Shown one piece after another: positions 435 to 26,782 of a DNA stretch of 64,000 bases. Each line of letters begins with the position of its first letter. Positions within the stretch are counted from its first letter, which is position 1. Source of the DNA: a virus (Duplodnaviria; Caudoviricetes); the IMG/VR virus record IMGVR_UViG_3300048670_001593, positions 14,718 to 78,717 of that record, one strand, 5' to 3'. A program made the position numbers and the translations under genes. Below the pieces are notes generated by a model. That model ran no database searches, had not been told where the DNA came from, and was given only the letters and a program-made list of their open reading frames with translations.

Positions 435-1541
435 ATGAATCAAGTTCCCAGTTGCAGTGCAATCGATACCGGGTTTTTTATCACCACCAGTGGCGGAGTA
501 AAAACCTGCTGCAGTGGACAATATGACTTGGGCAGTATACGGACTCAATCAACTGTTGAAATTTTCAATAGTAAAAAATACATTGACGTTAGAAATGCAT
601 TGGTCAACAATCAGCCCACTGAATATTGTAAACAATGCGATCATCAGGAATCCATTGCTCTGGGGTCCAGCCAAAAAACAATTTTCAATCAGAGTTTGCC
701 CAGTGTCGGACAGCGAAAAATTAAACAAATTGACATCAGATGGAGCAATTTGTGCAATCTAGCTTGCAGATACTGCAATCCCTACGACAGTAGTGAATGG
801 GCCAAGTTGCAATCAATTCCCATCGAATCTCTGAATAGATCTTATATTCAGAGTGTATTCGACACAGTGTCAGAAAATTTGGATTCACTTGAAGAAGTCT
901 ACTTGTTGGGTGGCGAACCCCTGTTACAAAAACACAACGAAACACTACTTGATCTAATAAGCGGTAAACAAAAAATTTCAGTTGTGACCAATCTCAGTGT
1001 TAATCTTGAAAAAAACAACGTATACCAGAAACTTAAAAAATTTCAAAATATTTCCTGGAGCCTGAGTTTTGAAAATGTTGGTGACAAATTCGAATATGTC
1101 AGACACGGGGCCAATTGGCAAAAATTTCTCAACAATATCCAGATTCTTAAAGATGATTTTGGCACTGGTAAAATTGATTTTCACCCAGTTTACAGCGTTT
1201 GGAGTGCGGTTGCATTAGACGAATTTTATGATTTCGCACACACTATTGGCGACTTTAAAATAACCTGGCAACTATGCAATGATGAGGTCCAGTCTGGTTA
1301 TGATATTTTTACTCATAATGAAAAAATAAAATCTGAAGCCATCAGACAGATTGAAAAAACTAATGTGGGATCATCTGCAAATTTCTTTAGTAAAGTCAAA
1401 GACAAACTCCAGACTTCTGAAGGTGTACCTCAGCAGAATCAAAAATTTTTAAATTGGATTGCTGAATCAGAGACACTATTGTCTCCTAACAAAACGTTTG
1501 CCGAGCTCTGGCCCAATTTATACCGATTACTGTCGGAATAA
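435..1541 (+). CDS. Radical SAM protein with N-terminal SPASM/twitch-like Cys cluster
   Basis: CNLACRYC (CxxxCxxC), LLGGEPLL; N-terminal C...GGVKTCC...CKQC. Confidence 0.85.
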   Translation: MNQVPSCSAIDTGFFITTSGGVKTCCSGQYDLGSIRTQSTVEIFNSKKYIDVRNALVNNQPTEYCKQCDHQESIALGSSQKTIFNQSLPSVGQRKIKQIDIRWSNLCNLACRYCNPYDSSEWAKLQSIPIESLNRSYIQSVFDTVSENLDSLEEVYLLGGEPLLQKHNETLLDLISGKQKISVVTNLSVNLEKNNVYQKLKKFQNISWSLSFENVGDKFEYVRHGANWQKFLNNIQILKDDFGTGKIDFHPVYSVWSAVALDEFYDFAHTIGDFKITWQLCNDEVQSGYDIFTHNEKIKSEAIRQIEKTNVGSSANFFSKVKDKLQTSEGVPQQNQKFLNWIAESETLLSPNKTFAELWPNLYRLLSE

Positions 1542-1554
1542 GGAATTGAAAAAA

Positions 1555-6343: not shown

Positions 6344-8422
6344 ATGAAGAAAAAAATAGAACTAGTCAACGTAACTGATCTGGAATCCATGTCCAGGACC
6401 CCATTGACCACATCTGATGTGGTTTTTGATCACATGGATCGTTTTACTCGACATCGGATGACGTTTGACAAAGATCTGGGGCTCCGAGGCAAATACTGTT
6501 ATCACCCTTTTAATACAGTGACCATTGACAGCCGGGGCGACTGTTATGTATGCGTCTGCCAGGCCTGGTTGCCCATTAGTGTGGGGAACATTCTGGAATT
6601 CGACAGTCTGACAGCAATCGTGCAGAGTGCCCGAGCCAGAGAAATACAAGCCAGCATTATTGACGGCACCTACAAATACTGTGACCACAAAACCTGCCAT
6701 CTGATTACCAGCAATAATCTGGAAGGACGTATTGATCACAGACCTGACACCATAAATTGGATTGTATTTGCCATTGACGATAGTTGTAACCTGACTTGTC
6801 CCAGTTGCAGAACAGACATGATTTTCTATAATCGAGGCGAAGATTTTGATCGACGCATGCGAATCAGCGATCACCTGGTAAAACTGATTCAGGAGCACGA
6901 CCATTTCTTAAAATTTACTCTGAGCGGTGATGGAGATCCGTTTGCCAGTCACGTATACCGCAACATGTTGGAAAAACTGGATCTCAGCAAGCGTGGGACC
7001 ACTGAAATTGAAATCGTAACCAATGGCATCCTGGCCAAGGACCATTGGCACCGGATGACTGGCATTCATAAAAATGTCATGAGATTCAAGATTAGTTTTG
7101 ATGCTGGTAGCCCAGAGGTTTACTCACTAACACGCAGGGGCGGTAACTGGAACAAGTTAATTGAAAGTTCAGAACACATCATCAAGTGGAAGCAAAAAAA
7201 TTATGCAGACATGGAACTTGTGGCAAATTTTGTAGTACAAACCACAAATTTTCGTGACATGCACCGATTTGTAAAGCTGACCCAGGATCTGGGATTTGAT
7301 GAAATCTCCTTCCAGAAAGTCACTGATTGGGGCAAATGGTACGATAACGGCATCAACCGATTTGTAGAACATGCTGTATGGATGCCTGATCATGAAAATT
7401 ATCAGGAATTGGTGGAAATCATCAATGATCCCATCATGACCGATAGGAAAATTAATTTAACCAATCTTTCACATCTGAGAAAAACGGTATTGTCTTTGTC
7501 GGAATTGGTGGATTTAAAAAACTCAGTCAATACCAAACTCAATACCAATAATTTGACATCAGAAACAGACAGTTATAAAACTCAGTTTGAAGCCATTAAA
7601 AATATTTCATCTGTTTACGAAAAAAACTTGAAGGCAATGTCTGACATTGCCGACGAAATCAATGTTAACTTAAAATTTTTAGATAACGAAATAGAAAATC
7701 TCAACACTAAAATTGATCAGGAAATTGATTCCATAACCGCCAACTATCATCAGAGAGGGTATAAAGTAAATGGGCATTTTGCTACCAATCGAACCAATCC
7801 AGAAACCGAAAGAGGATCAAGAAAATTACCAATGCTGGAGGAAACTCGCCAGGAAATCATTGCCCTAATTCAAAAGTATTCAGACTGGAAATATCCGGGT
7901 CTGGAAATTGGCCCCGGCGACGGTATCTGGACCGAATACCTGGTGGCAAATGAACCATTGTATCTGGTAGACATACATAATGAGTTTTTACAGTCCACTA
8001 CATCAAAATTCAATCCGGTCTATCAGAATCGATTGAGACTATATACAACCAGCGAAACTGATCTAAGTATGCTTCCACAAAATCAATTTGGTTTTGTGTT
8101 TTCATGGAATGTGTTCAATTATCTGACCACGGATCTAATAGATCAGTATCTGAAAGAAATTTTCAGTGTTTTGAGGCCCGGCGGAGTTTGCATGTTTAGC
8201 TATAATAATGCTGAACGCGTGCACTGTGCAAAGTATGTAGAACAGGGGTACATGAGTTATATGCCCAAAAAACTGTTAACCAAATTAATACATCAACACG
8301 GGTTCGAAATAATTGGTCTGGAAGATAGGAATGAATACATCGCCTGGGTCGAAATACGTAAACCTGGCGTTCTGAACACCATCAAAGCCCACCCTGTTCT
8401 GGGTGAAGTTATCCAAAAATAA
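6344..8422 (+). CDS. Fusion: radical SAM (SPASM-first) + coiled-coil linker + class I SAM-dependent methyltransferase
   Basis: N-half CYHPF...CYVCVC, CNLTCPSC, LSGDGDPF; C-half GLEIGPGDG glycine motif and FVFSWNVFNY. Confidence 0.8.
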   Translation: MKKKIELVNVTDLESMSRTPLTTSDVVFDHMDRFTRHRMTFDKDLGLRGKYCYHPFNTVTIDSRGDCYVCVCQAWLPISVGNILEFDSLTAIVQSARAREIQASIIDGTYKYCDHKTCHLITSNNLEGRIDHRPDTINWIVFAIDDSCNLTCPSCRTDMIFYNRGEDFDRRMRISDHLVKLIQEHDHFLKFTLSGDGDPFASHVYRNMLEKLDLSKRGTTEIEIVTNGILAKDHWHRMTGIHKNVMRFKISFDAGSPEVYSLTRRGGNWNKLIESSEHIIKWKQKNYADMELVANFVVQTTNFRDMHRFVKLTQDLGFDEISFQKVTDWGKWYDNGINRFVEHAVWMPDHENYQELVEIINDPIMTDRKINLTNLSHLRKTVLSLSELVDLKNSVNTKLNTNNLTSETDSYKTQFEAIKNISSVYEKNLKAMSDIADEINVNLKFLDNEIENLNTKIDQEIDSITANYHQRGYKVNGHFATNRTNPETERGSRKLPMLEETRQEIIALIQKYSDWKYPGLEIGPGDGIWTEYLVANEPLYLVDIHNEFLQSTTSKFNPVYQNRLRLYTTSETDLSMLPQNQFGFVFSWNVFNYLTTDLIDQYLKEIFSVLRPGGVCMFSYNNAERVHCAKYVEQGYMSYMPKKLLTKLIHQHGFEIIGLEDRNEYIAWVEIRKPGVLNTIKAHPVLGEVIQK

Positions 8423-8432
8423 TTTCAATCAG

Positions 8433-8461
8433 TTGATTTTTCTAAATAAACCGTATATGCT
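8433..8461 (+). promoter_or_regulatory. sigma70-type promoter with embedded late-type CTAAATA
   Basis: TTGATT-N17-TATGCT; the spacer contains CTAAATA. Confidence 0.55.
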
Positions 8462-8481
8462 ATTACAAATAGGAGAATATT

Positions 8482-9216
8482 ATGCGTGATTATCTGTTGG
8501 ACATTGTCAAGAACACTTATGGCCTGGGCATCATTAATCTGATCAAAGTTACTGGCTCTGAATCAGAGACCAAAATCGAAGCCATTGCCGAAGACAGGTC
8601 AGTTATCCTGCAGGGCAAGATCAATAATCCTGTGCCGGAATTCATTGGCACGTTTGGTATGCCTAATCTGGGCAAGCTCAACACCATCCTTAACATTCCA
8701 GAATACAAAGAAGATGCCAAAATTACACTGAGCACACAGGTGCGAAATGATGAAATCGTGCCGGTGGGGCTGGACTTTGAAAACTCCAGCAAGGATTTTA
8801 ATAATAACTATCGCTTTATGAATCAGGAATTGATCACTGAAAAGGTCAAGAGTGTCATTAGCCGCAAAACCATCAACTGGGCAGTGGAATTTCAACCCAC
8901 TGCTGCCAACATCCAGCGTCTGAAGTTCCAGGCCAGTGCCAACTCAGAAGAGTCCACTTTCACTGCCAAGACTGAGGGCACAGATCTCAAGTTTTATTTT
9001 GGAGATCACAGTAGTCATGCCGGTAATTTTGTGTTTCAGAACAACATTAGCGGAAAACTTACCAAGACCTGGAGTTGGCCTGTGGCAGCAGTAATTTCAA
9101 TTCTGAACCTGGCTGGAGACAAGACCTTCCAATTTAGTGATGACGGGGTGGCGCAAATCACTGTGGACACCGGACTGGCAACCTACAATTACCTGCTGCC
9201 AGCACAAAGCAAGTAA
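8482..9216 (+). CDS. Probable DNA polymerase sliding clamp (gp45-like)
   Basis: 244 aa with alternating beta/alpha pattern and replication-core position; no diagnostic motif. Confidence 0.55.
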   Translation: MRDYLLDIVKNTYGLGIINLIKVTGSESETKIEAIAEDRSVILQGKINNPVPEFIGTFGMPNLGKLNTILNIPEYKEDAKITLSTQVRNDEIVPVGLDFENSSKDFNNNYRFMNQELITEKVKSVISRKTINWAVEFQPTAANIQRLKFQASANSEESTFTAKTEGTDLKFYFGDHSSHAGNFVFQNNISGKLTKTWSWPVAAVISILNLAGDKTFQFSDDGVAQITVDTGLATYNYLLPAQSK

Positions 9217-9220
9217 AATG

Positions 9221-9244
9221 ACCATACGACCTTGGTCGTATGGT
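9221..9244. repeat. Perfect inverted repeat / hairpin between the clamp gene and dpdA
   Basis: ACCATACGACC-TT-GGTCGTATGGT; no U-tract follows. Confidence 0.85.
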
Positions 9245-9271
9245 AGACATTCTAAATAAAGAGGAAATAAG

Positions 9272-10903
9272 TTGACCTTTGATCGCGATAACTTAACCGC
9301 AAAACAAAAGGATTATGCTATATTTTTGCCTGCTCTGAGCGGCTTCTATGCTACATATGTGGGCAAGCAGCGTCACGATTCCAATTTTGTACCGCAGAGC
9401 CGTATACCAGCGGATTTTGAAAATGGCATCGAAGGACTCAACTGGCTCAATCCTGACCAGGCGTATTTTCCCTATAAATGGGCACTGTATAGTGCAGGAC
9501 ACGCTGATCTGGACATCAATAGAGACAGCCCCAAAGAGGACATGATACGCAATCGAGATCGTTCCACAAGTTTTGTGGTGGGAGATTCCGGTGGATTTCA
9601 GATTGGCAAGGGGGTCTGGGAAGCCGACTGGAAGGACATCAACTGCCCGCGAGCACAACGCAAGCGAGAGCAGGTGTTGTCCTGGATGGACGCCTACATG
9701 GATCGAGGCATGGTACTGGACATTCCAGCCTGGACCTGTGATTATCCTCCAGGACGTCAGGCATCGGGAGTCAACAGTTATGCCGATGCAGTGACCAGTA
9801 CCTACATCAATAACGACTACTTCATGCGCAATCGCAATGGTAACTGCAAGTTCCTGAACGTACTGCAGGGGCAAACTCATGCACAGTCTGACGACTGGTA
9901 TGACCGCATGAAGAAGTACTGCGACCCCCGGCAATACGAAACTCCGTTTGAAGGCTGGGCCATGGGCGGTCAGAACAAATGTGACGTGCATCTGACTCTG
10001 CGCAGACTGGTGGCACTGAAATTTGACGGTCTTTTGGAGCGTGGACAACACGACTGGTTGCACGTGTTGGGTACCAGCAAGTTGGAATGGGCTTGCCTGA
10101 TGACAGACATCCAACGTGCAATTCGACAGCACCACAATGAAAACTTTACCATCAGTTTTGACTGTGCCAGTCCATTCCTGGCCACAGCCAACGGTCAGGT
10201 ATACATGAGAACTGAGGTGGAAGATCGCCGCAAGTGGGTATATCGCATGATGGCCAGCGCGGACGATAAAAAATATGCAGTGGATCAGCGCCGTTATGGA
10301 GACGCAGTGGTGGCTGATAAAATTTTTGAGACCTTTACTGAAAGCCCAGTGAGTGAACGTCTAAAAATCAGTGATGTCTGCATCTACAAGGATGGCATCA
10401 GAAAAACTGATCAGGAGTTGCAGGGAGAAAAGTTCAACTTCCAGAATCCCGATCACTATCACGTGGTCCCAGATCTCAATAAGATTGGAAAAATCGGCCG
10501 AACCAGTTGGGACAGCTTTAGTTATGCTCTGCAAATGGGTCACAATGTCTGGAGTCATATCAATGCTGTTCAGGAAGCCAATCGTCGTTACGATTCGGGC
10601 ATCGTTCCCCGAATGCTGGTCAGAGAAAAGTTCGATCGCATCACATTCCGTCAGGTAGTGGATGAGATTTTTTCCACCAGCGATCGAGTTCGTGCTGAAG
10701 CACTGGTTGACGAGCACAGTAAATTCTGGATGGACATTCCTGGTTCCAATGGCACCACCGGCAAGAAAACCATAAATTCCATAACCGCTTACCAGAGTTT
10801 GTTTGAGGAAGTGGGTGCACCTGCTGAAACCTGCGTGGACTTTCATCGTGATGACAGCGGCATCGATGAAGGTAAACTTGACGATCTGGAAATGTCCATT
10901 TGA
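9272..10903 (+). CDS. dpdA: TGT-fold guanine transglycosylase, DpdA-like (7-deazaguanine insertion into DNA)
   Basis: GDSGGFQ, MVLDIP, GWAMGG, HVLG, SFDCASP match TGT motifs; no CxCxxC Zn site; folE, queD and queE are in the window; TTG start after GAGGA. Confidence 0.8.
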   Translation: MTFDRDNLTAKQKDYAIFLPALSGFYATYVGKQRHDSNFVPQSRIPADFENGIEGLNWLNPDQAYFPYKWALYSAGHADLDINRDSPKEDMIRNRDRSTSFVVGDSGGFQIGKGVWEADWKDINCPRAQRKREQVLSWMDAYMDRGMVLDIPAWTCDYPPGRQASGVNSYADAVTSTYINNDYFMRNRNGNCKFLNVLQGQTHAQSDDWYDRMKKYCDPRQYETPFEGWAMGGQNKCDVHLTLRRLVALKFDGLLERGQHDWLHVLGTSKLEWACLMTDIQRAIRQHHNENFTISFDCASPFLATANGQVYMRTEVEDRRKWVYRMMASADDKKYAVDQRRYGDAVVADKIFETFTESPVSERLKISDVCIYKDGIRKTDQELQGEKFNFQNPDHYHVVPDLNKIGKIGRTSWDSFSYALQMGHNVWSHINAVQEANRRYDSGIVPRMLVREKFDRITFRQVVDEIFSTSDRVRAEALVDEHSKFWMDIPGSNGTTGKKTINSITAYQSLFEEVGAPAETCVDFHRDDSGIDEGKLDDLEMSI

Positions 10904-10928
10904 CATCTGGGAAAATTTCAATTATTAT
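10900..10928 (+). promoter_or_regulatory. sigma70-type promoter overlapping the dpdA stop codon
   Basis: TTGACA-N17-TATTAT. Confidence 0.7.
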
Positions 10929-10948
10929 AAAACTCAACAGGAGGAAAT

Positions 10949-11539
10949 ATGAAAACTGCGCCGCTGATAAAAATTACTAAAATCAAAGCAAATCTTGTAG
11001 GAAAACAAGTTCCCACAACTCACAATGGTGCTGCCGGTAGATATATTGAAGATTTGATGATGGAACAGGGATTTAAGATAAATCAAGGTGCTGGGCCAGA
11101 TCTAGACTTTGGACCAGGAAACCAGATTGAAATGAAAAGTCGAGATGAAGACGCAACTAGCCCACACACTGTGTGTAATGTTTCATTTCAGGAAATTCTG
11201 AATTCTTCATATGAAAATTCGCCTGTCTATAAAAAAATCCAGAAGCAATTTAGAGTTAAGATTAAAGATGAAGTGATTGTCAGCCAACAGACCTATGATC
11301 TTAGTTCAGATTGGATACAAGATTTAATCAAGGATGCCTGGACAGCCTGTCAGAAAAATGCAATTGCAGGACTAACAACTAAATGCACAATTCCAGGAAC
11401 CCAATTTGGTTATATTGAAATTATACACAATGAGCAGACCAATAGTACAATTTACAGATTCAGACTATCTAACGGCGCAATGAAAAAAATTGAAAGTATT
11501 AGTAATTCCACTGTTAATGATCTTTTTGATTTGGTGTAA
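10949..11539 (+). CDS. PD-(D/E)xK nuclease, MutH/Sau3AI/MvaI-BcnI restriction-endonuclease-like
   Basis: GAAGRYIEDL...N...GPD...IEMKS matches the GxxGxxxE...PD...ExK pattern of that family. Confidence 0.65.
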   Translation: MKTAPLIKITKIKANLVGKQVPTTHNGAAGRYIEDLMMEQGFKINQGAGPDLDFGPGNQIEMKSRDEDATSPHTVCNVSFQEILNSSYENSPVYKKIQKQFRVKIKDEVIVSQQTYDLSSDWIQDLIKDAWTACQKNAIAGLTTKCTIPGTQFGYIEIIHNEQTNSTIYRFRLSNGAMKKIESISNSTVNDLFDLV

Positions 11540-11541
11540 CA

Positions 11542-11985
11542 ATGACTCTAAACGAACGCGAAACTATTGAACGTCGAAAAGATGCTGCAGAACGTAAAAT
11601 TTTTGTGCAGTTTCAAAAAGAAGGCATACATTGTTATCCTGCAGCAGCTACCGACCCTCAACTAAACACCGGAGACACCTATGATGTATCGTTCCTTGCT
11701 AGTCCTCATCGCCACATTTTCCATTTCAGGGTGTCAATCAGTGTGTGGCACAACGACAGGGACATCGAGTTCATCCAATTCAAACGCTGGCTCGAATCGC
11801 TGTATAGTGGCCAGATTCTAGAGCTCAATTATCGTAGTTGTGAAATGATGGCAGACGATTTGTATCTACAAATTGCCTTAAAGTATCCCGATCGCGATGT
11901 TCACATCGAAGTCAGTGAAGATGGCGAGAATGGGTGTTCAATTGAGTACAATCGTACTCGTCCTTATCAATCTGTTGTAGTTTAA
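11542..11985 (+). CDS. dpdL: QueD-like T-fold protein, DpdL-like (predicted 7-carboxy-7-deazaguanine decarboxylase)
   Basis: LASPHRHIF fits LxxxHRHxF (the QueD CxxxHGH site replaced); SCEMMA and VSEDGENG match T-fold C-terminal motifs; the DpdL motif is recalled from the literature and not checked. Confidence 0.65.
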   Translation: MTLNERETIERRKDAAERKIFVQFQKEGIHCYPAAATDPQLNTGDTYDVSFLASPHRHIFHFRVSISVWHNDRDIEFIQFKRWLESLYSGQILELNYRSCEMMADDLYLQIALKYPDRDVHIEVSEDGENGCSIEYNRTRPYQSVVV

Positions 11986-11998
11986 AGGAGTTGTAACT

Positions 11999-12190
11999 GT
12001 GTCAAAGCTCAGTAAGTTTATCAAGGTTTCAGACAATTTCACCATCAATCGTTATGACAATGGCTTTATGTTGGAAGTTTACGGTTGTGACAGCAATGAT
12101 GACTGGCACACTGCCAAGATTATCTGCACAACTGAAGCAGAATTGCTGGCACTAATCCAGCAAGTTAACTCAATCAATCTTGATGCATAA
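11999..12190 (+). CDS. Hypothetical protein
   Basis: GTG start after AAGGAG, 63 aa. Confidence 0.6.
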   Translation: MSKLSKFIKVSDNFTINRYDNGFMLEVYGCDSNDDWHTAKIICTTEAELLALIQQVNSINLDA

Positions 12191-12202
12191 GGAGTTCTAA
12201 AA

Positions 12203-12424
12203 ATGTCTAATCCCGTGTGGCTCAACAAGTACCTGACCATGAAGCCCGAAGTTCGTCAAATTTTTAACGATCTGGAAGCCTGGCTCAACTATTGCCGTTT
12301 TAATCTCATCAAGTATGATCCGGCTGATCTATACAAGAGCCCAGAATATCGTGCCTGGCAAGAGAAACGCCAGCGCAAGCAACAACAGCGACAAAATCGT
12401 GAGTATCGCCCCCGCACCAACTAA
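12203..12424 (+). CDS. Hypothetical protein
   Basis: ATG after TAAGGAG, 73 aa. Confidence 0.65.
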   Translation: MSNPVWLNKYLTMKPEVRQIFNDLEAWLNYCRFNLIKYDPADLYKSPEYRAWQEKRQRKQQQRQNREYRPRTN

Positions 12425-12438
12425 CCATAGGAAAAATC

Positions 12439-13200
12439 ATGGATAGAATTGTCATCGTTACCGGAGGATTTGATCCTGTACATTCCGGTCACATTTCTTA
12501 TCTGAGTCATGCCAAACAACTGGGTGATTATCTGGTGGTGGGTCTGAATTCCGACGACTGGTTGACTCGCAAAAAAGGTCGCCCGTTCATGCCCTGGGAT
12601 GAGCGCATGGTTGTTCTGGGAAACCTGCACATGGTGGACGAAGTCATTGATTTTGACGACACTGACGGCACTGCTTGTGATGCTATTCGTCGAGTTCAAG
12701 CCAGGTATCCTGACAGCCATGTGATTTTTGCCAATGGTGGTGACCGTACTTCTAAAAATATTCCAGAAATGGTATTTGATGATGTGGAATTTGTATTTGG
12801 TGTTGGTGGTACAAACAAGGCAAATTCAAGTTCCTGGATTTTAGAAGAATGGAAAGCCCCCCGGACACCCAGGCCCTGGGGCTACTATCGTGTGCTGCAT
12901 GAAGATGGCAACCAGGTCAAACTCAAAGAACTCACTGTGGAACCAGGTCAGCGACTGAGTATGCAACGCCACCAGGATCGTGCCGAGCACTGGTTTGTGT
13001 CACAGGGCACAGCAACAGTGTATACTGTGAATCCACGCACCACAGACGTGGAACTCACTGGTGTATATCAGCAGTTTGATCATGTTCACATCCCACGCAC
13101 TGAGTGGCATCAGTTGTGCAATGAGCAAGATGCACCGCTTAAAATTATTGAAATTCAATATGGCGAGCGGTGTGTGGAAGAGGACATTGAACGCGTATGA
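12439..13200 (+). CDS. HIGH-family cytidylyl/nucleotidyltransferase fused to a mannose-6-phosphate-isomerase-type cupin
   Basis: TGGFDPVHSGH, VVGLNSD, FANGGDR; C-terminal RPWG...LSMQRHQDRAEHW. Confidence 0.85.
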   Translation: MDRIVIVTGGFDPVHSGHISYLSHAKQLGDYLVVGLNSDDWLTRKKGRPFMPWDERMVVLGNLHMVDEVIDFDDTDGTACDAIRRVQARYPDSHVIFANGGDRTSKNIPEMVFDDVEFVFGVGGTNKANSSSWILEEWKAPRTPRPWGYYRVLHEDGNQVKLKELTVEPGQRLSMQRHQDRAEHWFVSQGTATVYTVNPRTTDVELTGVYQQFDHVHIPRTEWHQLCNEQDAPLKIIEIQYGERCVEEDIERV

Positions 13201-14270
13201 AGACCATCTGGATTGTTCCCATCGAGCCCATTGATCAGCGATATACTGCACAGTGGTACACCAACATTCCTGAGATCTTGAAATCTCGTATTGATGCACT
13301 TGGGCTAGACGCCCACGAAATCAGAATCGTAGACGGAGTTCAACCCCAGTCTGGCACCACCACAGGTGCCTTTTTGGATTTTGCGGTTACTAACATCTAC
13401 AAGGCCAGCCAGGCTCAGCGTATTTCAGAAGCATTTAGTTCAGGAGCGGTCAAGTCTGGAGATGTGTTCCTGGTCACAGATGCCTGGAATTTTGTCATCA
13501 CCCCCATCAAATACATGAGCGACTTGCTGAATATTCCAGTGGAAATTCATGGTATCTGGCATGCCGGGGCATATGATCCCACAGACATTCTGGGGTATCA
13601 GATGCAGAAGCCCTGGCCCTGGCATGCTGAGCAAAGTTGGTTTCATGCCTGTGATTACAATTACTACGCCACTGAGTTCCATCGTTCAATGTTCTTGACG
13701 AATCTCAACATTGATTCCAAAGTTTACGGGCACAAGGCTATTCGCAGCGGACAGCCACATGACCCCTTGATTGCTGAAATTTCAGTGAACTTTGACAATG
13801 CTGAGCGCAACGGTGCAGTCATGTGGCCACATCGTTATAACAGCGACAAGCAACCAGACATTGCTGAAGATCTGGCTCAGCTGATGCCGGTGACCATTAC
13901 TCAGAAAATGTCACTGAACAAGAGTCAGTATTATCAGACCATGGCCCAGCACAGTGTAATTTTTAGTTGCGCTCTACATGAAAACCTGGGAATCAGTGTC
14001 ATGGAAGCGGTGCTCAGTGGGGTCATCCCAGTGTTGCCCGACAGATGTAGTTATGCTGAAATGTATTTGCCAGACTTCCTGTATCCCAGTGAATGGACTG
14101 CGAACTGGGAGAAATATCAGCAGCATCGAACTGAATTGGTGGCGTTTATTCAGGAACGAATTCAGAATCGAGAACAGTATCTGCCAGCACTGCGTGAACA
14201 ACGAGAAATTCTAGTCAGAGACTATCTCAATGCCACAGTTATGATTGATAAAATTCTAAAAAATCAATGA
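13197..14270 (+). CDS. GT-B-type glycosyltransferase
   Basis: C-terminal FSCALHENLGISVMEAVLSGVIPVLPDRCSYAE resembles the GT4 ExFGxxxxEA motif. Confidence 0.7.
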   Translation: MKTIWIVPIEPIDQRYTAQWYTNIPEILKSRIDALGLDAHEIRIVDGVQPQSGTTTGAFLDFAVTNIYKASQAQRISEAFSSGAVKSGDVFLVTDAWNFVITPIKYMSDLLNIPVEIHGIWHAGAYDPTDILGYQMQKPWPWHAEQSWFHACDYNYYATEFHRSMFLTNLNIDSKVYGHKAIRSGQPHDPLIAEISVNFDNAERNGAVMWPHRYNSDKQPDIAEDLAQLMPVTITQKMSLNKSQYYQTMAQHSVIFSCALHENLGISVMEAVLSGVIPVLPDRCSYAEMYLPDFLYPSEWTANWEKYQQHRTELVAFIQERIQNREQYLPALREQREILVRDYLNATVMIDKILKNQ

Positions 14271-15118
14271 GTTATTTTAATTTATTAGATCAAATACATA
14301 ACAATCTTTCATCTCCGAAAAGATCATGGTATTATGAATCGTTAACCAACAAAGACACTCTGTTGATCACAGCGGGAGATAGCTGGACCTGGGGTGATAG
14401 TCTTCTTGACATTGATGTCGAAGCTGGTAAGTATGACCATCCCGACAGAGTCAACAAAATATATGGTGCATTGCTGGCAAAAAAACTAGATGCTGATTTT
14501 ATTAATCTTGCCAAATGCGGTGGTGCGAATATAGAGTTCTGTGATTGGGTAAAAACTCTTTTACCAATAGTCAAGACAAAATATAAAAAAATTATTGTAG
14601 CAATTAGTCTGACTGAGAACTGCCGAGAATCATATGGGGATAGAATCTGGGTCCCTGAAGAACAACCCAGTCTTGAAGAATATTTGTGTGAATACGAAAA
14701 AAATATGTTTGAAAATCTTGCTCTGACCTGCAAGCAACATAGTTCAGTTCACTTTGTAATTTCTAGAAACTTTACCTACAGCTTTGATAGTAATATTTTG
14801 CTACTTAAAAATTACTTAACTGAAAAGATTTGGGTTGATTGTTTAGCTGAATATCAAAACAATCAAAATTATCCCACAGATGTCAGGTTCCTTTCTGACA
14901 TTGCACTAGTACCATTGCACAAACTACTCAAAGAAATTAAACTTTATAACAAGTATAAATTTCAATTTATGAGTTTATATGCCAGCAGTGAATTGGCAAT
15001 CTCATGGTTAGAAAAAAGCAAGTTAAATTACAAAAAAGCCACAAAACATCCAAACGAACTCGGGCATGAGATTTGGGCAGATTATCTGTACAATATAATT
15101 GTTGCCCGTTTACATTGA
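14267..15118 (+). CDS. SGNH/GDSL-like hydrolase or acyltransferase
   Basis: TAGDSWTWGD, INLAKCGGAN, HPNELGHEIWA. Confidence 0.7.
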   Translation: MSYFNLLDQIHNNLSSPKRSWYYESLTNKDTLLITAGDSWTWGDSLLDIDVEAGKYDHPDRVNKIYGALLAKKLDADFINLAKCGGANIEFCDWVKTLLPIVKTKYKKIIVAISLTENCRESYGDRIWVPEEQPSLEEYLCEYEKNMFENLALTCKQHSSVHFVISRNFTYSFDSNILLLKNYLTEKIWVDCLAEYQNNQNYPTDVRFLSDIALVPLHKLLKEIKLYNKYKFQFMSLYASSELAISWLEKSKLNYKKATKHPNELGHEIWADYLYNIIVARLH

Positions 15119-15143
15119 CTTAATATTATGATACTTTTATAAT
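15115..15143 (+). promoter_or_regulatory. sigma70-type promoter
   Basis: TTGACT-N17-TATAAT. Confidence 0.8.
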
Positions 15144-15220
15144 AAACTTAAAGAAAACAGCCACAAGATTAAAAATGAAGAAACCCCAGCTGACCAATCC
15201 ACCACCCAACAAATAAGGCA

Positions 15221-15808
15221 ATGAGTAATCCCTTCGATACAATTTCAGAATTTGAGCAGGCACTGGCAGAGTATACTGGTGCCCCGTATGCCATCGCAAC
15301 TGATTGTTGCACTCATGCACTGGAACTGTGTCTGCGCTATCAGAAGCCTGAATTTGTGCATTTTACTGCGTTCACCTATCTGAGTGTGCCCATGACCATG
15401 CACAAACTGGGCATTGGGTTCAGTTATCTGGATGAAACCTGGCTGGGGGAATATCAGATACACGGCACCACCGTCTGGGATAGTGCCAGACGACTGGAAT
15501 CCGGCATGTATCGACCTGGTCAGATGCAATGTCTGAGTTTTGGTCGTGACAAGCCCCTGGAAATTGGTCGTGGTGGTGCCATATTATTAGACGACCCCCT
15601 GGCTTATGAAATCATGCGCAGGCAGAGATACGATGGCAGAATGCTGGAAATCACCCCCTGGGAAAATCAGAGAATATTCCATGTTGGTTATCATTATCGA
15701 ATGAACCCCGAAGAAGCACGGATAGGTCTGGAAAAACTCCAGTCATTTGAACCCAACACCAGAATTAAAAAATATCCAGATCTGCGAAAAATTATTATTA
15801 GCAGTTAA
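15221..15808 (+). CDS. Short DegT/DnrJ/EryC1/StrS-like PLP aminotransferase
   Basis: FEQALAEYTGAPYAIATDCCTHALEL, WDSA, CLSFGRDKPLEIGRGGAIL; only 195 aa. Confidence 0.7.
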   Translation: MSNPFDTISEFEQALAEYTGAPYAIATDCCTHALELCLRYQKPEFVHFTAFTYLSVPMTMHKLGIGFSYLDETWLGEYQIHGTTVWDSARRLESGMYRPGQMQCLSFGRDKPLEIGRGGAILLDDPLAYEIMRRQRYDGRMLEITPWENQRIFHVGYHYRMNPEEARIGLEKLQSFEPNTRIKKYPDLRKIIISS

Positions 15809-16110: not shown

Positions 16111-17019
16111 ATGCCAACTAATAATATAAAACCTCCTCTTGTATTTGGTGGTGCTGGTGCCATAATCGATCCCGAAATAAAACAACAAATACATGATATC
16201 ATTTGTAGTGCACCAAGTCAGGATTGGTTGGACGATTTGTCAATACATAAAATTTTTCTTGATCAGTATACCAAATGGATACTAGGTACTAGAAAAAATG
16301 TTATTCGAGGATTGGATCAGTATACGGTTAAAGCCTTTAGTCAAGGCACCACTGAATCCTTTGACAAATTTTATCTCAAACATCATCGTCGCAGATTTAG
16401 ATGTTTTCGAGGTGAATACATGTATCATACAGCCACTTGGAAAAATATTTTTTCAATGCAATGGAAACACATCGAAGACGACCCCATAGACAAAAATGAT
16501 GCGGTTGTTATTAGTTTACCATTCAGCGATACCGGAGATTGCCACAATGATATGAAGCGTGTGCTTGAGCAGTGCTGTGAGCTTGATGTCCCCGTACTAA
16601 TTGATTGTGCGTTTTTTGGAATATGTCAGAACCTAGAATTTGACTTTACTTGGCCTTGTATTACAGATATCACATTTAGTTTGAGTAAAACCTTGCCAGT
16701 TGCCCATGCCAGAATTGGCATGAGAGTGAGCCGGGTTGATGACGATGACAGTTTATTGGTTCATCAAAAAATTGGCTATATCAATAGATTGGCGTGTGGG
16801 CTAGGTATAGAACTATTGAATCGATGGGGTCCGGACTACAACTGTGAAAAATGGACAAATGTACAACATCAGTTTTGTAAACGGTTAAATATAATGCCCA
16901 GCAAGAGTGTGGTATTTGGATTGGGTGGAGATGACTTCAGTAAATACAATCGAGGCGGTGCTACCAATCGCCTGTGTTTTTCAAAGTATCTATATTCCGG
17001 AACCCTGCCCCATGATTGA
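16111..17019 (+). CDS. PLP-dependent transferase (fold-type I-like)
   Basis: VLIDCAF and FSLSKT..ARIG resemble the PLP-binding Asp and Schiff-base Lys segments. Confidence 0.55.
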   Translation: MPTNNIKPPLVFGGAGAIIDPEIKQQIHDIICSAPSQDWLDDLSIHKIFLDQYTKWILGTRKNVIRGLDQYTVKAFSQGTTESFDKFYLKHHRRRFRCFRGEYMYHTATWKNIFSMQWKHIEDDPIDKNDAVVISLPFSDTGDCHNDMKRVLEQCCELDVPVLIDCAFFGICQNLEFDFTWPCITDITFSLSKTLPVAHARIGMRVSRVDDDDSLLVHQKIGYINRLACGLGIELLNRWGPDYNCEKWTNVQHQFCKRLNIMPSKSVVFGLGGDDFSKYNRGGATNRLCFSKYLYSGTLPHD

Positions 17020-17740
17020 CATTGATTTAATAACTAGTAAGTACGATCCAAAAAACTATGCCATAGATTACAGTCACGGCACACCTGTGCCTTGGTTGAC
17101 GTTTGATGACTTCTTGCCTCAAGAACTACTACAAAGTGTACAAGAAGAAATAGAAACTGTGCCAGAACACCTTTGGAGTAAGTTTACTCGCAATGGTAGT
17201 TTCATGCGTGAATGCAATAATCTTAAATTTTCTCCACGCATAAGAGAATTGGTATTAAATCTCAACAGCAGTGAGTTTCTAAATTGGCTGGAAAATATCA
17301 CAGGACTTAAAAAAATCATAGCTGATCCACATTTGATTGGTGCTGGACTTATGCGTTGTGGATCAGGCGACAGTCTCAAGCTACACACAGACTTTAATTG
17401 GAACGAACAATTGGGCCTCAATCGATGTCTTAGCCTGATTCTTTATATTGGAAAAACATGGCAATCTGAATGGGGCGGTGGATTGGAATTTTGGGACTTC
17501 GAAAGAAAAAATCGATTACATACTATTGAACCCAAGCCCAATCGGCTGTTGGTCTGGAACTATCATGAACACCTGGTTCACGGTCATCCTACTCCATTGT
17601 CTTGTCCTAATAATGTTAGTCGAGACGGTATTAGACTGTTTTATTTTACTAGTAATGCCACTCCACTATCTCCGCCACATCGTAGTTTGTATTGGTTTGA
17701 TAATGAAGTGGGTGCGTATGATCGAAAGGAAAATCAATGA
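17012..17740 (+). CDS. 2OG-Fe(II) oxygenase (prolyl-4-hydroxylase-like)
   Basis: LHTD (HxD), WGGGLEFW, distal HGH, terminal R; start at ATG 17012. Confidence 0.85.
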   Translation: MIDIDLITSKYDPKNYAIDYSHGTPVPWLTFDDFLPQELLQSVQEEIETVPEHLWSKFTRNGSFMRECNNLKFSPRIRELVLNLNSSEFLNWLENITGLKKIIADPHLIGAGLMRCGSGDSLKLHTDFNWNEQLGLNRCLSLILYIGKTWQSEWGGGLEFWDFERKNRLHTIEPKPNRLLVWNYHEHLVHGHPTPLSCPNNVSRDGIRLFYFTSNATPLSPPHRSLYWFDNEVGAYDRKENQ

Positions 17741-18405
17741 AGCTTTGGGTATTTGGGCACAGTTTGTGCTTGCCATTTGGGTTAGATAATAATGCACAAG
17801 GGTGGGGCGATTTGCTTGCTCAAGATCTTGGTGCTGAATTAAACAATCTTGCACGACCCGGTGTAGATAATTTTTACATCTATTATAGCTATCAACAGGT
17901 TCTTAAAGATATTGACAAGGAAGACTATGTAGTAATCGGGTGGAGTCATTATAGCCGTAAATTGTTTGTGGTTGATAATGATAATCCTGACCACATGAAT
18001 GTTGTTGAAAAAAGTTTAACTTATGATACTCCACACGCTCAATTTATGCGTAACGGCAATGCAGTAACTGGCGACTCAACAAAATGGTTAACTATGCGCC
18101 CACAGAATCGCGGAGTACCGTTTTATGATATATGGTATCAAAATTATTATAGTGAACTTGAGCAAAAGGTTAATTTTCAAAGCTATTTGGATAGTGTCAA
18201 ACTTACATGTCCAGGGCAATACTTGCCATTTTATTTTAGCAACGAAACAGTGTCAGGCGTAGATATTGATACAAGGCATGCTGGATGTGTAACAGAATTT
18301 ATTATTGAAAATAACTTATCAATATCTAAAAAAGATTTTCATTTCAGTCATGACGGTCATAGAATCTGGGCAAATTATCTAAAAAATTATTTGACATTAT
18401 CCTAA
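17737..18405 (+). CDS. SGNH/GDSL-like protein
   Basis: VFGHS, NLARPGVDN, VIGWSH..R, FHFSHDGHRIWA. Confidence 0.6.
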   Translation: MKLWVFGHSLCLPFGLDNNAQGWGDLLAQDLGAELNNLARPGVDNFYIYYSYQQVLKDIDKEDYVVIGWSHYSRKLFVVDNDNPDHMNVVEKSLTYDTPHAQFMRNGNAVTGDSTKWLTMRPQNRGVPFYDIWYQNYYSELEQKVNFQSYLDSVKLTCPGQYLPFYFSNETVSGVDIDTRHAGCVTEFIIENNLSISKKDFHFSHDGHRIWANYLKNYLTLS

Positions 18406-18466: not shown

Positions 18467-19279
18467 ATGCCTAACTATGCTTCACCTGAAGAACAAAAAA
18501 TAGAAAATCTTAGATCAAACAAACTGGTACAAGAAGCACCCTATCATCCCGGCTACGAAGATGCAGTGGTTGGCGACAAAGGCTATGAAGAGGCCAATCT
18601 GGCAGATGCTATTCGCTTCCGAATGCAACGTGACCGGAAACGTTTTTGGGCTGGCGACAACATCAGCGACTATTTGCATGACGGTGATAAAGAAATCTTA
18701 ATCAACGAAGCTACAGAAGCATTTGAACGAGTATTAGACACTTTGCTGATCGATCGTGAAACAGATCCTAACTCAAGGGGCACAGCACGTCGTCTCGCTA
18801 AAATGTATTTTAATGAAATTATGGGAGGTCGATATGATCCTGCTCCATGCGCCACGGCCTTCCCCAACGACAGTCAGGAACGCTACGAGGGCATGCTGGT
18901 GGTGCGCAGTGAACTGCGTAGTATGTGCAGTCACCATCATCAGCCAGTCAGCGGTGTGGCCTACATTGGTATCATTGCCGCACAAAAGTTGATTGGTCTC
19001 AGCAAGTACACGCGGATTGCCCAGTGGTGCGCCCGTCGTGGCACTCTGCAGGAAGAACTCTGCAATGATATTGCCCGAGAGATCCAGAAAGCCACTGGCA
19101 GCGAAAACGTTGCTGTTTACATACAGGCCACACATGGCTGCTGTGAAAACAGGGGGATAATGGCACACAGCAGTCTGACACAGACCACAGTGCTCAAAGG
19201 CTCATTTTACAGTGATCCCGGCACCAAGAAAGAATTTTTTGATAACATCAAGTTGCAACAAGAGTTTGCTCCCAGGTAA
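18467..19279 (+). CDS. folE: GTP cyclohydrolase I
   Basis: SMCSHHHQP, IGLSKYTRI, RRGTLQEEL, ATHGCCENRG. Confidence 0.95.
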   Translation: MPNYASPEEQKIENLRSNKLVQEAPYHPGYEDAVVGDKGYEEANLADAIRFRMQRDRKRFWAGDNISDYLHDGDKEILINEATEAFERVLDTLLIDRETDPNSRGTARRLAKMYFNEIMGGRYDPAPCATAFPNDSQERYEGMLVVRSELRSMCSHHHQPVSGVAYIGIIAAQKLIGLSKYTRIAQWCARRGTLQEELCNDIAREIQKATGSENVAVYIQATHGCCENRGIMAHSSLTQTTVLKGSFYSDPGTKKEFFDNIKLQQEFAPR

Positions 19280-25279: not shown

Positions 25280-26286
25280 GATACCTACTTGTAGACACTG
25301 CCAACACTTTCTTCCGTGCCCGACATTCAGCACATCGCCAGAGTGACACCTGGGATAAGCTGGGGTTCGCTGTGCATATGACTCTGGCCAGCATCAATAA
25401 AAGCTGGAGAGACCAGCGAGCCGATCATGTGGTGTTCTGTCTGGAGGGACGTAGTTGGCGCAAGGACTATTACGAACCCTACAAGAAGAATCGAGCAGTG
25501 GCCAGAGCCGCCCTGACTGAGTCCGAGGCCGAGGAGGATCGACTGTTCTGGGAGACATTTGATGCACTTAAGACTTTTATCCAGGAAAAAACGAATTGCA
25601 CTGTACTACAGCATCCGTCGCTGGAAGCAGATGATCTCATTGCTGGCTTCATCGCCAGTCATCCAGCAGATCATCATACTATTATCAGTAGCGATACTGA
25701 CTACTATCAGTTACTGGCGGAAAATGTAAATCAGTACAACGGCATCACTGATGAACTGCATACCCTGGAAGGCATCTTTGATAAGCGTGGCCGTCTGGTG
25801 ATTGACAAAAAGACCAATGAACCCAAAAAAATCCCCGATCCCAAATTTATTTTGTTTGAAAAGTGCATGCGGGGTGATGCCACCGACAACATCTTTAGTG
25901 CATACCCCGGGGTCAGAACCCGTGGCACCAAGAACAAGGTGGGGTTGGAAGAAGCCTATGCCGACCGAGACCGTCAGGGCTATGCCTGGAACAACCTGAT
26001 GTTGCAACGCTGGACTGACCACAATGGACAGGAACACCGTGTGCTGGATGATTACGAACGCAATCGTACCCTGGTGGATTTGACTGCGCAGCCCGATCAT
26101 GTCAAAGTTATGATTGCAGAAACCATTGCCCAGGCCAGTCTGACCAAGAATACACCCATGGTGGGGGCACAGTTTTTGAAATTTTGTGGTCGTTACGATC
26201 TGGTTAAACTCAGTGAAAATGCCAGCAGTTTTGCAGAATGGCTGGGCGCAAGTTATCCAGATTCGGCAATCAAACAGTCAGCATAA
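25276..26286 (+). CDS. T4 RNase H-like 5'-3' exonuclease (PIN/FEN fold)
   Basis: LLVDTAN, WRKDYY..YK.NR, EADDLI, SSDTDYYQL, RGDATDNI. Confidence 0.9.
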   Translation: MRYLLVDTANTFFRARHSAHRQSDTWDKLGFAVHMTLASINKSWRDQRADHVVFCLEGRSWRKDYYEPYKKNRAVARAALTESEAEEDRLFWETFDALKTFIQEKTNCTVLQHPSLEADDLIAGFIASHPADHHTIISSDTDYYQLLAENVNQYNGITDELHTLEGIFDKRGRLVIDKKTNEPKKIPDPKFILFEKCMRGDATDNIFSAYPGVRTRGTKNKVGLEEAYADRDRQGYAWNNLMLQRWTDHNGQEHRVLDDYERNRTLVDLTAQPDHVKVMIAETIAQASLTKNTPMVGAQFLKFCGRYDLVKLSENASSFAEWLGASYPDSAIKQSA

Positions 26287-26296
26287 AGGAAAAGTC

Positions 26297-26782
26297 ATGG
26301 CAAAATTCTACTCAACAAAAACTTACGGAAACGACCGTGGTTTATCATGCTGTTTTAGACAATGGCGCGCCACCCATAGCCACTGCTCAACACTACATGG
26401 ATACTCAATCGGTATTAAGCTGATATTTGAATGTGACACGCTAGACGACAAAAACTGGTGTATGGACTTTGGCGGTCTTAAAGAATTCAAAGCCTGGGCA
26501 GATCATATGTTTGATCACACTCTAGTAATTGCAGAAGACGATCCCTATCTGGATACATTCCAAAAGCTGAACGCTATTACTGGCGGGTTCGAAGACAGCG
26601 GACTGTGCAATCTACGCATTGTACCAGGAGTAGGCTGTGAAATGTTTGCTAAGATGTGCTACGATAAAATGGCTGAACTATTGTCATCTGGAGGCATGCG
26701 TTATCCCATCAACCCCACAGTAAGAGTCAAATCAGTTGAAGTATTTGAACACGGTGCCAACTCGGCCACTTACGAAGGATAA
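26297..26782 (+). CDS. queD: 6-carboxy-5,6,7,8-tetrahydropterin synthase
   Basis: HCSTLHGY, MDFGGLK, FDHT, GCEMFA, VFEHGANSA; start at ATG 26297 after AAGGA. Confidence 0.85.
   Translation: MAKFYSTKTYGNDRGLSCCFRQWRATHSHCSTLHGYSIGIKLIFECDTLDDKNWCMDFGGLKEFKAWADHMFDHTLVIAEDDPYLDTFQKLNAITGGFEDSGLCNLRIVPGVGCEMFAKMCYDKMAELLSSGGMRYPINPTVRVKSVEVFEHGANSATYEG

Follow-up and report, generated by a model that had tools for sequence, protein, structure and literature searches.

The window, as we call the whole stretch of viral DNA analyzed here (64,000 nucleotides; Duplodnaviria, Caudoviricetes), contains a small gene between a dpdA-like gene and dpdL (Table 1). An initial annotation of this DNA had proposed a 196-aa restriction-endonuclease-like protein at this place on account of the motif pattern GxxGxxxE...PD...ExK, and the ORF found there does encode G27-A-A-G30-R-Y-I-E34, P50-D51, and E61-M-K63. 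The gene had also been described as AT-richer than its neighbors, which holds: its GC content is 35.9%, against 49.1% in the DpdA-like gene, 43.0% in dpdL, and 44.5% in the window as a whole.

Table 1. Features of the putative nuclease locus and genes related to 7-deazaguanine modification in the window
Feature	Position	Strand	Basis or remark
DpdA-like DNA-guanine transglycosylase candidate, 543 aa	9272..10903	+	TGT fold (predicted); DSGGFQ and FDCAS motifs
Sigma-70-type promoter-like site	10900..10928	+	TTGACA 10900-10905, 17-nt spacer, TATTAT 10923-10928
Shine-Dalgarno sequence AGGAGG	10939..10944	+	4 nt upstream of nuclease ATG; sequence reading
MutH-like PD-(D/E)xK nuclease gene (putative)	10949..11539	+	196-aa ORF, ATG start
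Predicted catalytic residues	E34 11048-11050; D51 11099-11101; E61 11129-11131; K63 11135-11137	+	Profile alignment
DpdL, proposed 7-carboxy-7-deazaguanine decarboxylase, QueD-like T-fold	11542..11985	+	Signature and homology
Glycosyltransferase-like gene, 357 aa	13197..14270	+	Homologs adjoin dpdL in PA5oct, ACP17, and Phosso
FolE (GTP cyclohydrolase I), first step of 7-deazaguanine synthesis	18467..19279	+	PF01227, E 4e-38
QueD-like PTPS (6-pyruvoyl tetrahydropterin synthase family)	26186..26782	+	PF01242, E 2e-16

The annotated promoter was recovered as a promoter-like site with 11 of 12 consensus matches, the joint best in a 10.5-kb scan, and, as had been noticed, it overlaps the end of the upstream gene, whose TGA stop codon (10901-10903) falls within the -35 hexamer. 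Sites with at least 11 of 12 matches number 14 in the whole window, compared with 1.9 +/- 1.2 in shuffled sequences; 12 of them are on the plus strand, and for most of the sites an ORF starts no more than 165 nt downstream. This excess indicates that the site upstream of the nuclease gene is not a lone chance match, and the phage plausibly uses sigma-70-type promoters of the TTGACA/TATTAT kind. Since dpdL starts 3 nt past the nuclease stop codon, with no terminator in between, the promoter would drive the nuclease gene and dpdL as well as the genes that follow. The claim that the nuclease gene has its own early promoter is therefore upheld with regard to the site, but not with regard to its exclusive use. 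In most relatives, the nuclease gene already begins within the end of the gene before it, and no promoter-like site precedes it; judging from these sequences, the promoter is specific to the lineage of the window phage.

Both neighbors named in the initial annotation, dpdA and dpdL, were recovered, the former in a more cautious wording. The AlphaFold2 (AF2) model of the upstream gene product had a pLDDT of 69, and its top 50 Foldseek matches were all tRNA-guanine transglycosylases (E ~1e-6). The DSGGFQ and FDCAS motifs are invariant across the alignment of this protein, which shares 37% identity with a hypothetical protein of PA5oct. Comparison of its profile with E. coli Tgt by hhalign gave a weak match (E 0.0018) over the FDC region, a PDB profile search was empty, and the protein matched no Pfam family, PF01702 included. 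The assignment thus rests on the fold search, by which the upstream neighbor is predicted to be a TGT-fold, DpdA-like gene. In tblastn searches, this protein matched PA5oct-like phages, Phosso, and one Vibrio phage, while neither phiST nor Campylobacter DpdA3 was matched; as no BLAST-level match to the named DpdA1-4 subfamilies was obtained, we call it DpdA-like, without a subfamily. DpdL is defined by LxxxHRHxF replacing CxxxHGH in a QueD-like T-fold protein (PMC10516641), and the downstream neighbor carries this signature as LASPHRHIF (residues 52-60; L52-x3-H56-R57-H58-x-F60). It is 55% identical to DpdL of ACP17 and 34% identical to that of phiST, and it also matches phrog_17812. The dpdL gene of PA5oct is EST35_0318, and dpdA/dpdL have been reported to show no activity in E. 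coli (PMC10516641).

PA5oct contains experimentally demonstrated modified G, and its DNA is resistant to several restriction enzymes with G in their sites (PMC12191111). Likewise, DpdA3 phages with full replacement of G are resistant to enzymes having G in the recognition site (PMC10516641). Together with FolE, QueD, and DpdL in the window, these resistances make it plausible that 7-deazaguanine modification is present and protective in the window phage.

The AF2 model of the 196-aa protein has a pLDDT of 95.9. Structure comparison by VIA aligned 174 residues to the MutH-DNA complex 2aor_B with a Z score of 14.0 and an rmsd of 3.4, followed by Sau3AI (Z 11.3) and MvaI (Z 8.7), with the next folds at about 7. 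Foldseek likewise returned MutH, Sau3AI, and MvaI (E 3e-5 to 9e-4), and a shape search of the ESM Atlas returned clusters of the Sau3AI family (TM 0.72) and of the MvaI/BcnI family (TM 0.66). By hhalign, the family profile matched E. coli MutH with an E value of 4.8e-4, pairing E34, D51, E61, K63, and K96 with E56, D70, E77, K79, and K116 of MutH. Among 63 sequences of the family, D51 and K63 are invariant and E34 and E61 are conserved in at least 90%; K96, Q124, E157, and R172 are polar residues outside the active site that are invariant down to 30% identity. By predicted fold and catalytic residues, the protein thus belongs to the MutH/Sau3AI/MvaI-BcnI branch of PD-(D/E)xK enzymes, in agreement with what the motifs alone had suggested. 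The Pfam MutH model (PF02976) was weakly matched by 12 of the 63 sequences (best E 1.3e-5) and not by the window protein, which also missed the threshold of TIGR02248 (E 0.08; 12 bits versus a cut-off of 230). These weak or absent matches point to a separate, distant family within the MutH fold branch. PADLOC reported a weak match to REase_II (E 0.005), and sequence searches of the PDB gave no match with the single protein and none above noise with the family profile.

The family was assembled by an exhaustive protein search, since a word-index search matched only the protein itself; it comprises about 234 clusters, all from phages. The window protein had no match in PHROGs or, by tblastn, in 50,697 GenBank phage records, and megablast with the gene region was negative as well. 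No close bacterial or archaeal relative was detected in a scan of 185,579 species genomes with one peptide pattern, a method of limited reach, and scans of viral contigs seeded with the distant family members P0107, P0120, and P0098 found nothing. The dN/dS ratio of 0.06 to 0.24 is comparable to that of DpdL and DpdA and indicates, on sequence evidence, that the family is under purifying selection. We had also considered the window copy as a decaying pseudogene, which is ruled out by its intact ORF and the selection acting on the family.

In 39 of 42 viral contigs that carry a related nuclease, in a sample seeded with the nuclease itself, the gene adjoins a DpdA-like gene, dpdL, or both, so the proposed co-occurrence with dpdA was found. 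It extends to family members at 31-33% identity. The slot directly upstream of dpdL is retained while the left neighbor varies, and in most loci the nuclease gene is translationally coupled to both neighboring genes. In one family member, the overlap is with the stop codon of a gene encoding a probable DNA amino-methyltransferase (PF02384, 30.4 bits versus a cut-off of 20.4; NPAF and GNG motifs), a second pairing with a gene for DNA modification that is independent of the first. Some members have no modification gene in view and are flanked instead by genes for an S21/Rv2179c-like exonuclease, DNA ligase, HNH/PRT, or radical SAM proteins. Homologs unlinked to dpdA had been named beforehand as evidence against a functional pair; they make up a minority of distant members, located on short or fragmentary contigs, as illustrated by the L036 and L042 records, 5-10% fragments on which no DpdA or DpdL was found. 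Two points bear on the weight of the linkage: most of it may stem from one single origin of the position next to dpdL, and the gene was chosen for study because of its position, which introduces a selection bias.

Seen from dpdL, the gene is in the minority. In a dpdL-seeded sample, it was present in 5 of the 74 nearest dpdL loci (~7%) and absent from the other 69, and the closest relative of the window (97% amino acid identity in DpdL; 91% in the nucleotide block) lacks it. Accordingly, the reading as a conserved core gene of the cluster was dropped. Presence and absence changed at least 13 times, with good support, on a DpdA tree of 97 rows. In two pairs of loci (L037/L130 and L004/L142), the indel is exactly the nuclease ORF, about 555 bp, in flanking DNA that has diverged to 79-88%, and nucleotide homology between the window and locus L070 restarts with the final base of the stop codon of the nuclease gene. 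A profile search of the complete genomes of PA5oct, ACP17, phiST, and Phosso found no nuclease (positive control, 8e-74). Given its absence from these four DpdL genomes and from most dpdL loci, the nuclease does not belong to the chemistry of the modification. Rather, it is an optional, exchangeable cassette in a slot upstream of dpdL among related giant phages; this optional status and the dpdL-adjacent linkage are new here. With the gene missing from the closest relative, the wedged-in, AT-rich, and promoter-bearing look of the window copy agrees with a recent exchange of the cassette. Neither in dpdL nor in the 120 nt after it, the region covered by our scan, does any position track the presence of the nuclease (best split, 2/27 against 41/32); a target spanning the empty junction is possible.

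The reading we favor, with a rough probability of 0.45, is that the protein is a restriction-like nuclease that spares deazaguanine DNA. We predict a compact enzyme of the MutH/Sau3AI/MvaI branch that consists of a single domain, requires metal, and is active as a DNA endonuclease or nickase. In DNA lacking the guanine modification of the phage, it would cleave or nick at short sites containing G. Its targets might be host DNA or the unmodified DNA of a co-infecting phage, and the deazaguanine DNA of the phage itself would resist it; in the window phage, the host-type promoter might provide for early expression together with dpdL. Within this model, we infer what the substrate is, whether modification blocks the enzyme, whether it nicks or cuts, and when it is expressed. 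The window shows no avoidance of GATC (observed/expected, 1.07) or CCWGG (1.04), which is in keeping with modification, and not a scarcity of sites, as the means of protection; avoidance of CCSGG was not found either, and the counts of the three sites give no clue to specificity. Several observations count against the model. DpdA-type modification has been proposed to be post-replicative (PMC10516641), so that nascent phage DNA would be transiently unmodified on one strand and open to nicking, unless hemi-modified sites are refractory. Moreover, a selfish element would account just as well for the patchy distribution and the clean indels, and some members have no modification gene in view.

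A selfish element is indeed the main rival, and it has gained weight since the initial annotation mentioned it as the alternative, given the frequency of ~7% among nearest dpdL loci, the repeated changes on the tree, and the clean indels. On this view, a free-standing homing-type endonuclease would attack alleles without the nuclease gene in co-infecting relatives, cleaving at the junction upstream of dpdL or close to it. Recombinational repair would then copy the gene in, and its place in the dpd cluster would be historical, not functional. Absence from the closest relative, the ORF-sized indel with homology resuming at the stop codon, the AT-rich composition with a promoter of its own in the window, and the constancy of the dpdL-adjacent slot despite a varying left neighbor are all in line with such mobility, and relatives carry further homing-type genes in this neighborhood, namely NUMOD3, HNH, and, within polB of PA5oct, a Hef-like gene. 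However, residues 7-189, that is, the whole protein, align with MutH, which leaves no additional DNA-binding module for a long target, and no homing enzyme is known to us from the branch of MutH, Sau3AI, and MvaI. The purifying selection on the gene matches that on its neighbors in strength, and K96, Q124, E157, and R172 stay invariant while the flanking DNA diverges. Translational coupling to both neighbors in most loci, the member paired with a methyltransferase, and the failure of any scanned position to track the gene are further arguments against homing, which we regard as less likely than the restriction-like reading.

Less probable still is a MutH-like, strand-discriminating nickase that reads 7-deazaguanine in place of adenine methylation. 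Such an enzyme would nick the still-unmodified daughter strand at hemi-modified sites after replication and before DpdA acts, and the nick would direct mismatch repair or start recombination-dependent replication. The nearest structural relative is MutH, including its complex with hemimethylated DNA, the gene is predicted from its spacing to be co-transcribed with dpdL, and post-replicative modification (PMC10516641) would give a hemi-modified state resembling hemimethylated GATC. Against this speak the occurrence of family members outside dpd clusters and the fact that most relatives, as well as the four cultured DpdL phages, do without the gene; furthermore, no MutS or MutL homolog was noticed within the annotated parts of the window. 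The idea that the modification pathway needs the nuclease as an obligatory helper, for instance, to open DNA for the transglycosylase, is suggested solely by adjacency to dpdA and dpdL and is close to refuted, as the gene is missing from most dpdL loci and from complete DpdL-carrying genomes, including that of PA5oct with its experimentally modified G.

To our knowledge, 7-deazaguanine in phage DNA has so far been understood solely as a shield against host restriction. If ordinary DNA is cut by the nuclease and deazaguanine DNA is spared, the modification would serve as one half of a weapon in addition to being a shield, and the two together would be a portable, phage-borne restriction-modification pair that uses base exchange and not a methyl group. 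A compact 196-aa enzyme telling G from 7-deaza-G would also be useful for mapping modifications. If it is a homing enzyme instead, we know of no earlier example from the MutH branch, and the gene would serve to trace gene flow between giant phages that are uncultured. In either case, a phage-only family gains a fold, a predicted active site, and a testable function.

With E. coli MutH (PDB 2aor, 2aoq, and 2azo), the protein shares the predicted fold over nearly its whole length, a similar size, a single-domain architecture, and the GxxGxxxE...D...ExK active site with its downstream lysine; however, the identity is about 13%, and the window protein is phage-encoded and falls below the Pfam and TIGRFAM MutH models. 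The type II enzymes Sau3AI and MvaI/BcnI belong to the same fold branch and cut short G-containing sites in a modification-sensitive manner, MvaI and BcnI being monomers that nick each strand in turn. The window nuclease is much shorter than Sau3AI, whose second, effector domain it lacks, and it has neither a methyltransferase partner in the window nor a detected close bacterial homolog. The free-standing homing endonucleases of T4-like phages (Seg and Mob) are likewise sporadic and precisely inserted between conserved genes, and the AT-rich nuclease gene, perhaps with its own promoter, resembles them in this respect. It differs from them in fold family, in having no extra DNA-binding domain, in strong purifying selection, and in that no immunity polymorphism was found in dpdL and the following 120 nt. 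T4 offers the same logic as the one proposed here without homology: EndoII (denA), a GIY-YIG enzyme, and EndoIV (denB) are non-essential phage nucleases that attack unmodified DNA and spare the hydroxymethylcytosine DNA of the phage. In T4, the modification is made at the nucleotide level and nascent DNA is never bare, in contrast to the post-replicative modification expected here. The bacterial Dpd system combines modification by dpdA-C, with the transglycosylase DpdA as the modifier, and restriction by dpdD-K. Its transglycosylase, bDpdA, has been described (PMC10516641). The restriction-modification logic based on 7-deazaguanine would be the same in both cases, but the restriction part of bacterial Dpd is a multi-gene machine unrelated to MutH, whereas the phage would achieve it with one 196-aa nuclease.

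The 196-aa product encoded between the DpdA-like gene and dpdL gave nothing significant in single-protein searches of Pfam, PHROGs, NCBIfam, and PDB sequences, the sole hint being TIGR02248 MutH (E value, 0.08). When 1.84 billion cluster representatives were searched exhaustively with HMMER, 234 relatives emerged (E ≤1e-3), nearly all of 180 to 200 aa. In a 63-sequence alignment, D51, K63, K96, Q124, E157, and R172 are invariant, and conservation is 90% or higher at G18, G30, E34, G41, E61, R65, and S71; 12 members match Pfam MutH and 2 match MvaI_BcnI. An AlphaFold2 model built with the family alignment (pLDDT 95.9) retrieved MutH, MvaI, and Sau3AI as top Foldseek matches (E values, 3e-5 to 9e-4). 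VIA-align superimposed it on the MutH-hemimethylated DNA complex with a Z score of 14.0 (174 residues; rmsd, 3.4), followed by Sau3AI (11.3), MvaI (8.7), and HincII, PvuII, and others (about 7 or lower). In an ESM Atlas shape search, viral hypothetical clusters ranked first (TM ~0.8) and bacterial clusters of the Sau3AI (TM 0.72) and MvaI/BcnI (TM 0.66) families next. Profile alignment to E. coli MutH (E value, 4.8e-4) placed E34, D51, E61, K63, and K96 on MutH E56, D70, E77, K79, and K116. Since fold matches and profile alignment agree, the initial annotation was correct in reading MutH/Sau3AI/MvaI-BcnI motifs here. The protein is thus predicted to be a MutH-like PD-(D/E)xK nuclease, compact and single-domain, whose putative active site is intact, and with its relatives it forms a distant, separate family below the curated Pfam and TIGRFAM thresholds. 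The gene shows no decay, with dN/dS values (0.06 to 0.24) similar to those of DpdL (0.03 to 0.22) and DpdA (0.04 to 0.15). Among carriers, its divergence follows that of its neighbors (r = 0.87 with a 244-aa upstream gene and 0.73 with DpdA).

The 147-aa protein encoded 3' of the nuclease contains LASPHRHIF and shares 55% and 34% identity with DpdL of phages ACP17 and phiST, respectively. LxxxHRHxF is the defining signature of DpdL (PMC10516641), and by sequence we assign this protein to DpdL. The 543-aa upstream protein has no Pfam match but retains DSGGFQ and FDCAS motifs and shares 37% identity with a PA5oct protein; the top structural matches of its model (pLDDT 69) are solely tRNA-guanine transglycosylases (E value, ~1e-6). 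Because it lacks BLAST-level similarity to named DpdA3 proteins, the name DpdA-like is used here with no subfamily label. Genes for FolE and a QueD-like PTPS also lie within the window. The nearest cultured phage with the same DpdA-like/DpdL pair is PA5oct, whose DNA reportedly resists several restriction enzymes in a pattern pointing to modified G (PMC12191111). A 357-aa glycosyltransferase-like protein has homologs encoded directly beside dpdL in PA5oct (EST35_0317, 34% identity), ACP17 (30%), and Phosso (42%, annotated as glycosyltransferase). It has the look of a conserved DpdL partner, suggesting that the final base could be glycosylated. The B-family DNA polymerase gene is flanked by three radical SAM genes, of which two encode SPASM domains and one is a fusion with a class I methyltransferase; related radical SAM genes adjoin the nuclease in loci L019, L022, and L065.

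Features of the nuclease region and of the wider window
Feature	Window position	Strand	Remarks
Nuclease ORF	10949..11539	+	196 aa, real ORF
AGGAGG	4 nt 5' of nuclease ATG
TTGACA-N17-TATTAT	10900-10928		11/12 matches
Near-consensus sigma-70 sites	3577, 15115, 18391, 22003, 25241, 28356	+	11-12 of 12
Near-consensus sigma-70 sites, further	29446, 29801, 30103, 31603, 32851	+	11-12 of 12
DpdA-like gene	9272-10903	+	543 aa
Glycosyltransferase-like gene	13197-14270		357 aa
Radical SAM genes (three)	435-3000 and 6344-8422

All that had initially been observed, namely the ORF, its motifs and neighbors, its AT-richness (35.9% GC versus 49.1% upstream, 43.0% downstream, and 44.5% in the window), and the promoter overlapping a stop codon, was confirmed in every detail; the -35 hexamer contains the TGA of the preceding gene. 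The promoter is present, but it would not be the nuclease's alone: only 3 nt separate the nuclease stop from the dpdL start and no terminator was found between them, and therefore the predicted promoter would also serve dpdL and genes beyond. Sites with at least 11/12 matches number 14 in the window versus 1.9 expected; 12 of them lie on the + strand, mostly just 5' of genes such as polB and folE. The phage thus plausibly uses host-type promoters, the nuclease site being one of a set. It is probably a giant phage, as the 78.7-kb IMG/VR source record is estimated to be only 22% complete.

An IMG/VR scan seeded with the nuclease yielded 42 loci, 39 of which carry a DpdA-like gene and/or DpdL beside it (DpdA-like upstream in 35, DpdL directly downstream in 36); the other three show a DNA ligase context on 5 to 10% complete fragments. 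Members of only 31 to 33% identity keep this position. Most loci contain a conserved gene of 168 aa, p168, between the DpdA-like gene and the nuclease; its stop codon overlaps the nuclease ATG, and nothing promoter-like was found before the nuclease in these loci. The p168 product (MNREGH..FFxGxEVEHTPA..TLFVVG..FGANxSF) has no match in Pfam, PADLOC, or Atlas. Its gene lies between the DpdA-like gene and dpdL at L008:5489-5995 and in L005, L016, L019, L061, and L069, adjoins the cluster in ACP17 (L053:2330-2728), and is absent from the window and the whole 78.7-kb record.

Other contexts exist. One member (33% identity; L066:841-2731, a 2.8-kb metagenome contig) shares 8 nt with the 3' end of a gene for a 435-aa probable DNA amino-methyltransferase (PF02384, 30.4 bits; N-terminal NPAF and a later GNG motif, CGNGQF), a classical restriction-modification layout. 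In a distant sub-branch of 28% identity (L057:6945-8350, L058 to L060, and L050), the nuclease gene is invariably flanked by a phage gene for ribosomal protein S21 and one for an Rv2179c-like 3'-5' exonuclease, with no dpd genes in view. Further members lie 3' of an HNH gene with a PRT-like gene nearby, alongside radical SAM genes (91-kb contig), and 3' of the glycosyltransferase gene that follows dpdL.

As the nuclease had served as seed for the first sample, a second scan was seeded with DpdL. Relatives of DpdL occur on at least 582 viral contigs; among the nearest 80, 74 had enough flank to be judged, and only 5 of these carry the nuclease. The closest relative of the window, L070 (DpdL, 97% aa identity), lacks it and has two other ORFs and p168 between its DpdA-like gene and dpdL; homology at the nucleotide level (91%) begins again at window position 11539, where the nuclease stop codon ends. 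A DpdA tree of 97 loci, 30 of them carrying the nuclease, shows at least 13 switches between presence and absence on well-supported branches (18 by parsimony). The pairs L037/L130 and L004/L142 differ by a clean indel of ~555 bp corresponding to the nuclease ORF, and a profile search (positive control, 8e-74) found no family member in the four complete genomes of DpdL phages (PA5oct, ACP17, phiST, and Phosso). Thus, the nuclease gene is an accessory cassette that the modification chemistry can do without.

Window positions 8084-15806 are strongly mosaic relative to L070, with blocks of 91 to 92% (dpdL with two small ORFs; a DegT-like gene) and ~74% nucleotide identity (clamp-like and DpdA-like genes) alternating, and with non-homologous cassettes at 10807-11538, 12410-15221, and apparently 16111-18405. 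That the DpdA-like gene recombined separately is suggested by the 84% identity of its product to that of L033:3754-5298, where flanking genes share 63 to 66% and the nucleases 38%.

The best-supported reading, to which we give a probability of roughly 45%, is that of a restriction-like accessory nuclease sparing modified phage DNA. Its cutting or nicking would be directed at short sites in DNA lacking the phage's guanine modification, and the phage's own modified DNA would be refractory. To our knowledge, the characterized enzymes of the MutH/Sau3AI/MvaI branch are all site-specific and modification-sensitive. The family's two independent pairings with DNA-modifying genes and the predicted co-transcription with dpdL support this reading, as does, by analogy, the dispensability of the nuclease; T4 denA and denB are likewise dispensable. 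That the window shows no avoidance of GATC or CCWGG was also counted in its favor. DNA containing 7-deazaguanine reportedly resists enzymes whose sites contain G (PMC10516641). A weak point is that modification is post-replicative, so that nascent phage DNA would be briefly bare on one strand. The modification-plus-nuclease pair of the initial annotation is plausible but unproven.

Its alternative, a selfish endonuclease, has become stronger than could be known at first, given the patchy presence and precise indels, and ranks below the restriction-like reading. A homing-type element, the main rival, would also fit the AT-rich gene, the lineage-specific promoter, and the fixed position beside dpdL. 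We nevertheless consider it rather unlikely: the nuclease has no extra DNA-binding module and is under strong constraint, its invariant polar residues persist across deep divergence, and no dpdL position covaries with nuclease presence. A MutH-like strand-discriminating nickase using the hemi-modified state is attractive by analogy but fits poorly with dispensability and is improbable. An obligatory role in the modification pathway is very hard to credit for an optional gene.

Our literature search turned up no report of a MutH-like nuclease associated with the 7-deazaguanine clusters of phages. The restriction-like reading itself follows a logic already known from T4 and the bacterial Dpd system, in which a nuclease is likewise combined with a protective modification; what would be new here is the carrier, a phage-only nuclease family within a known fold.
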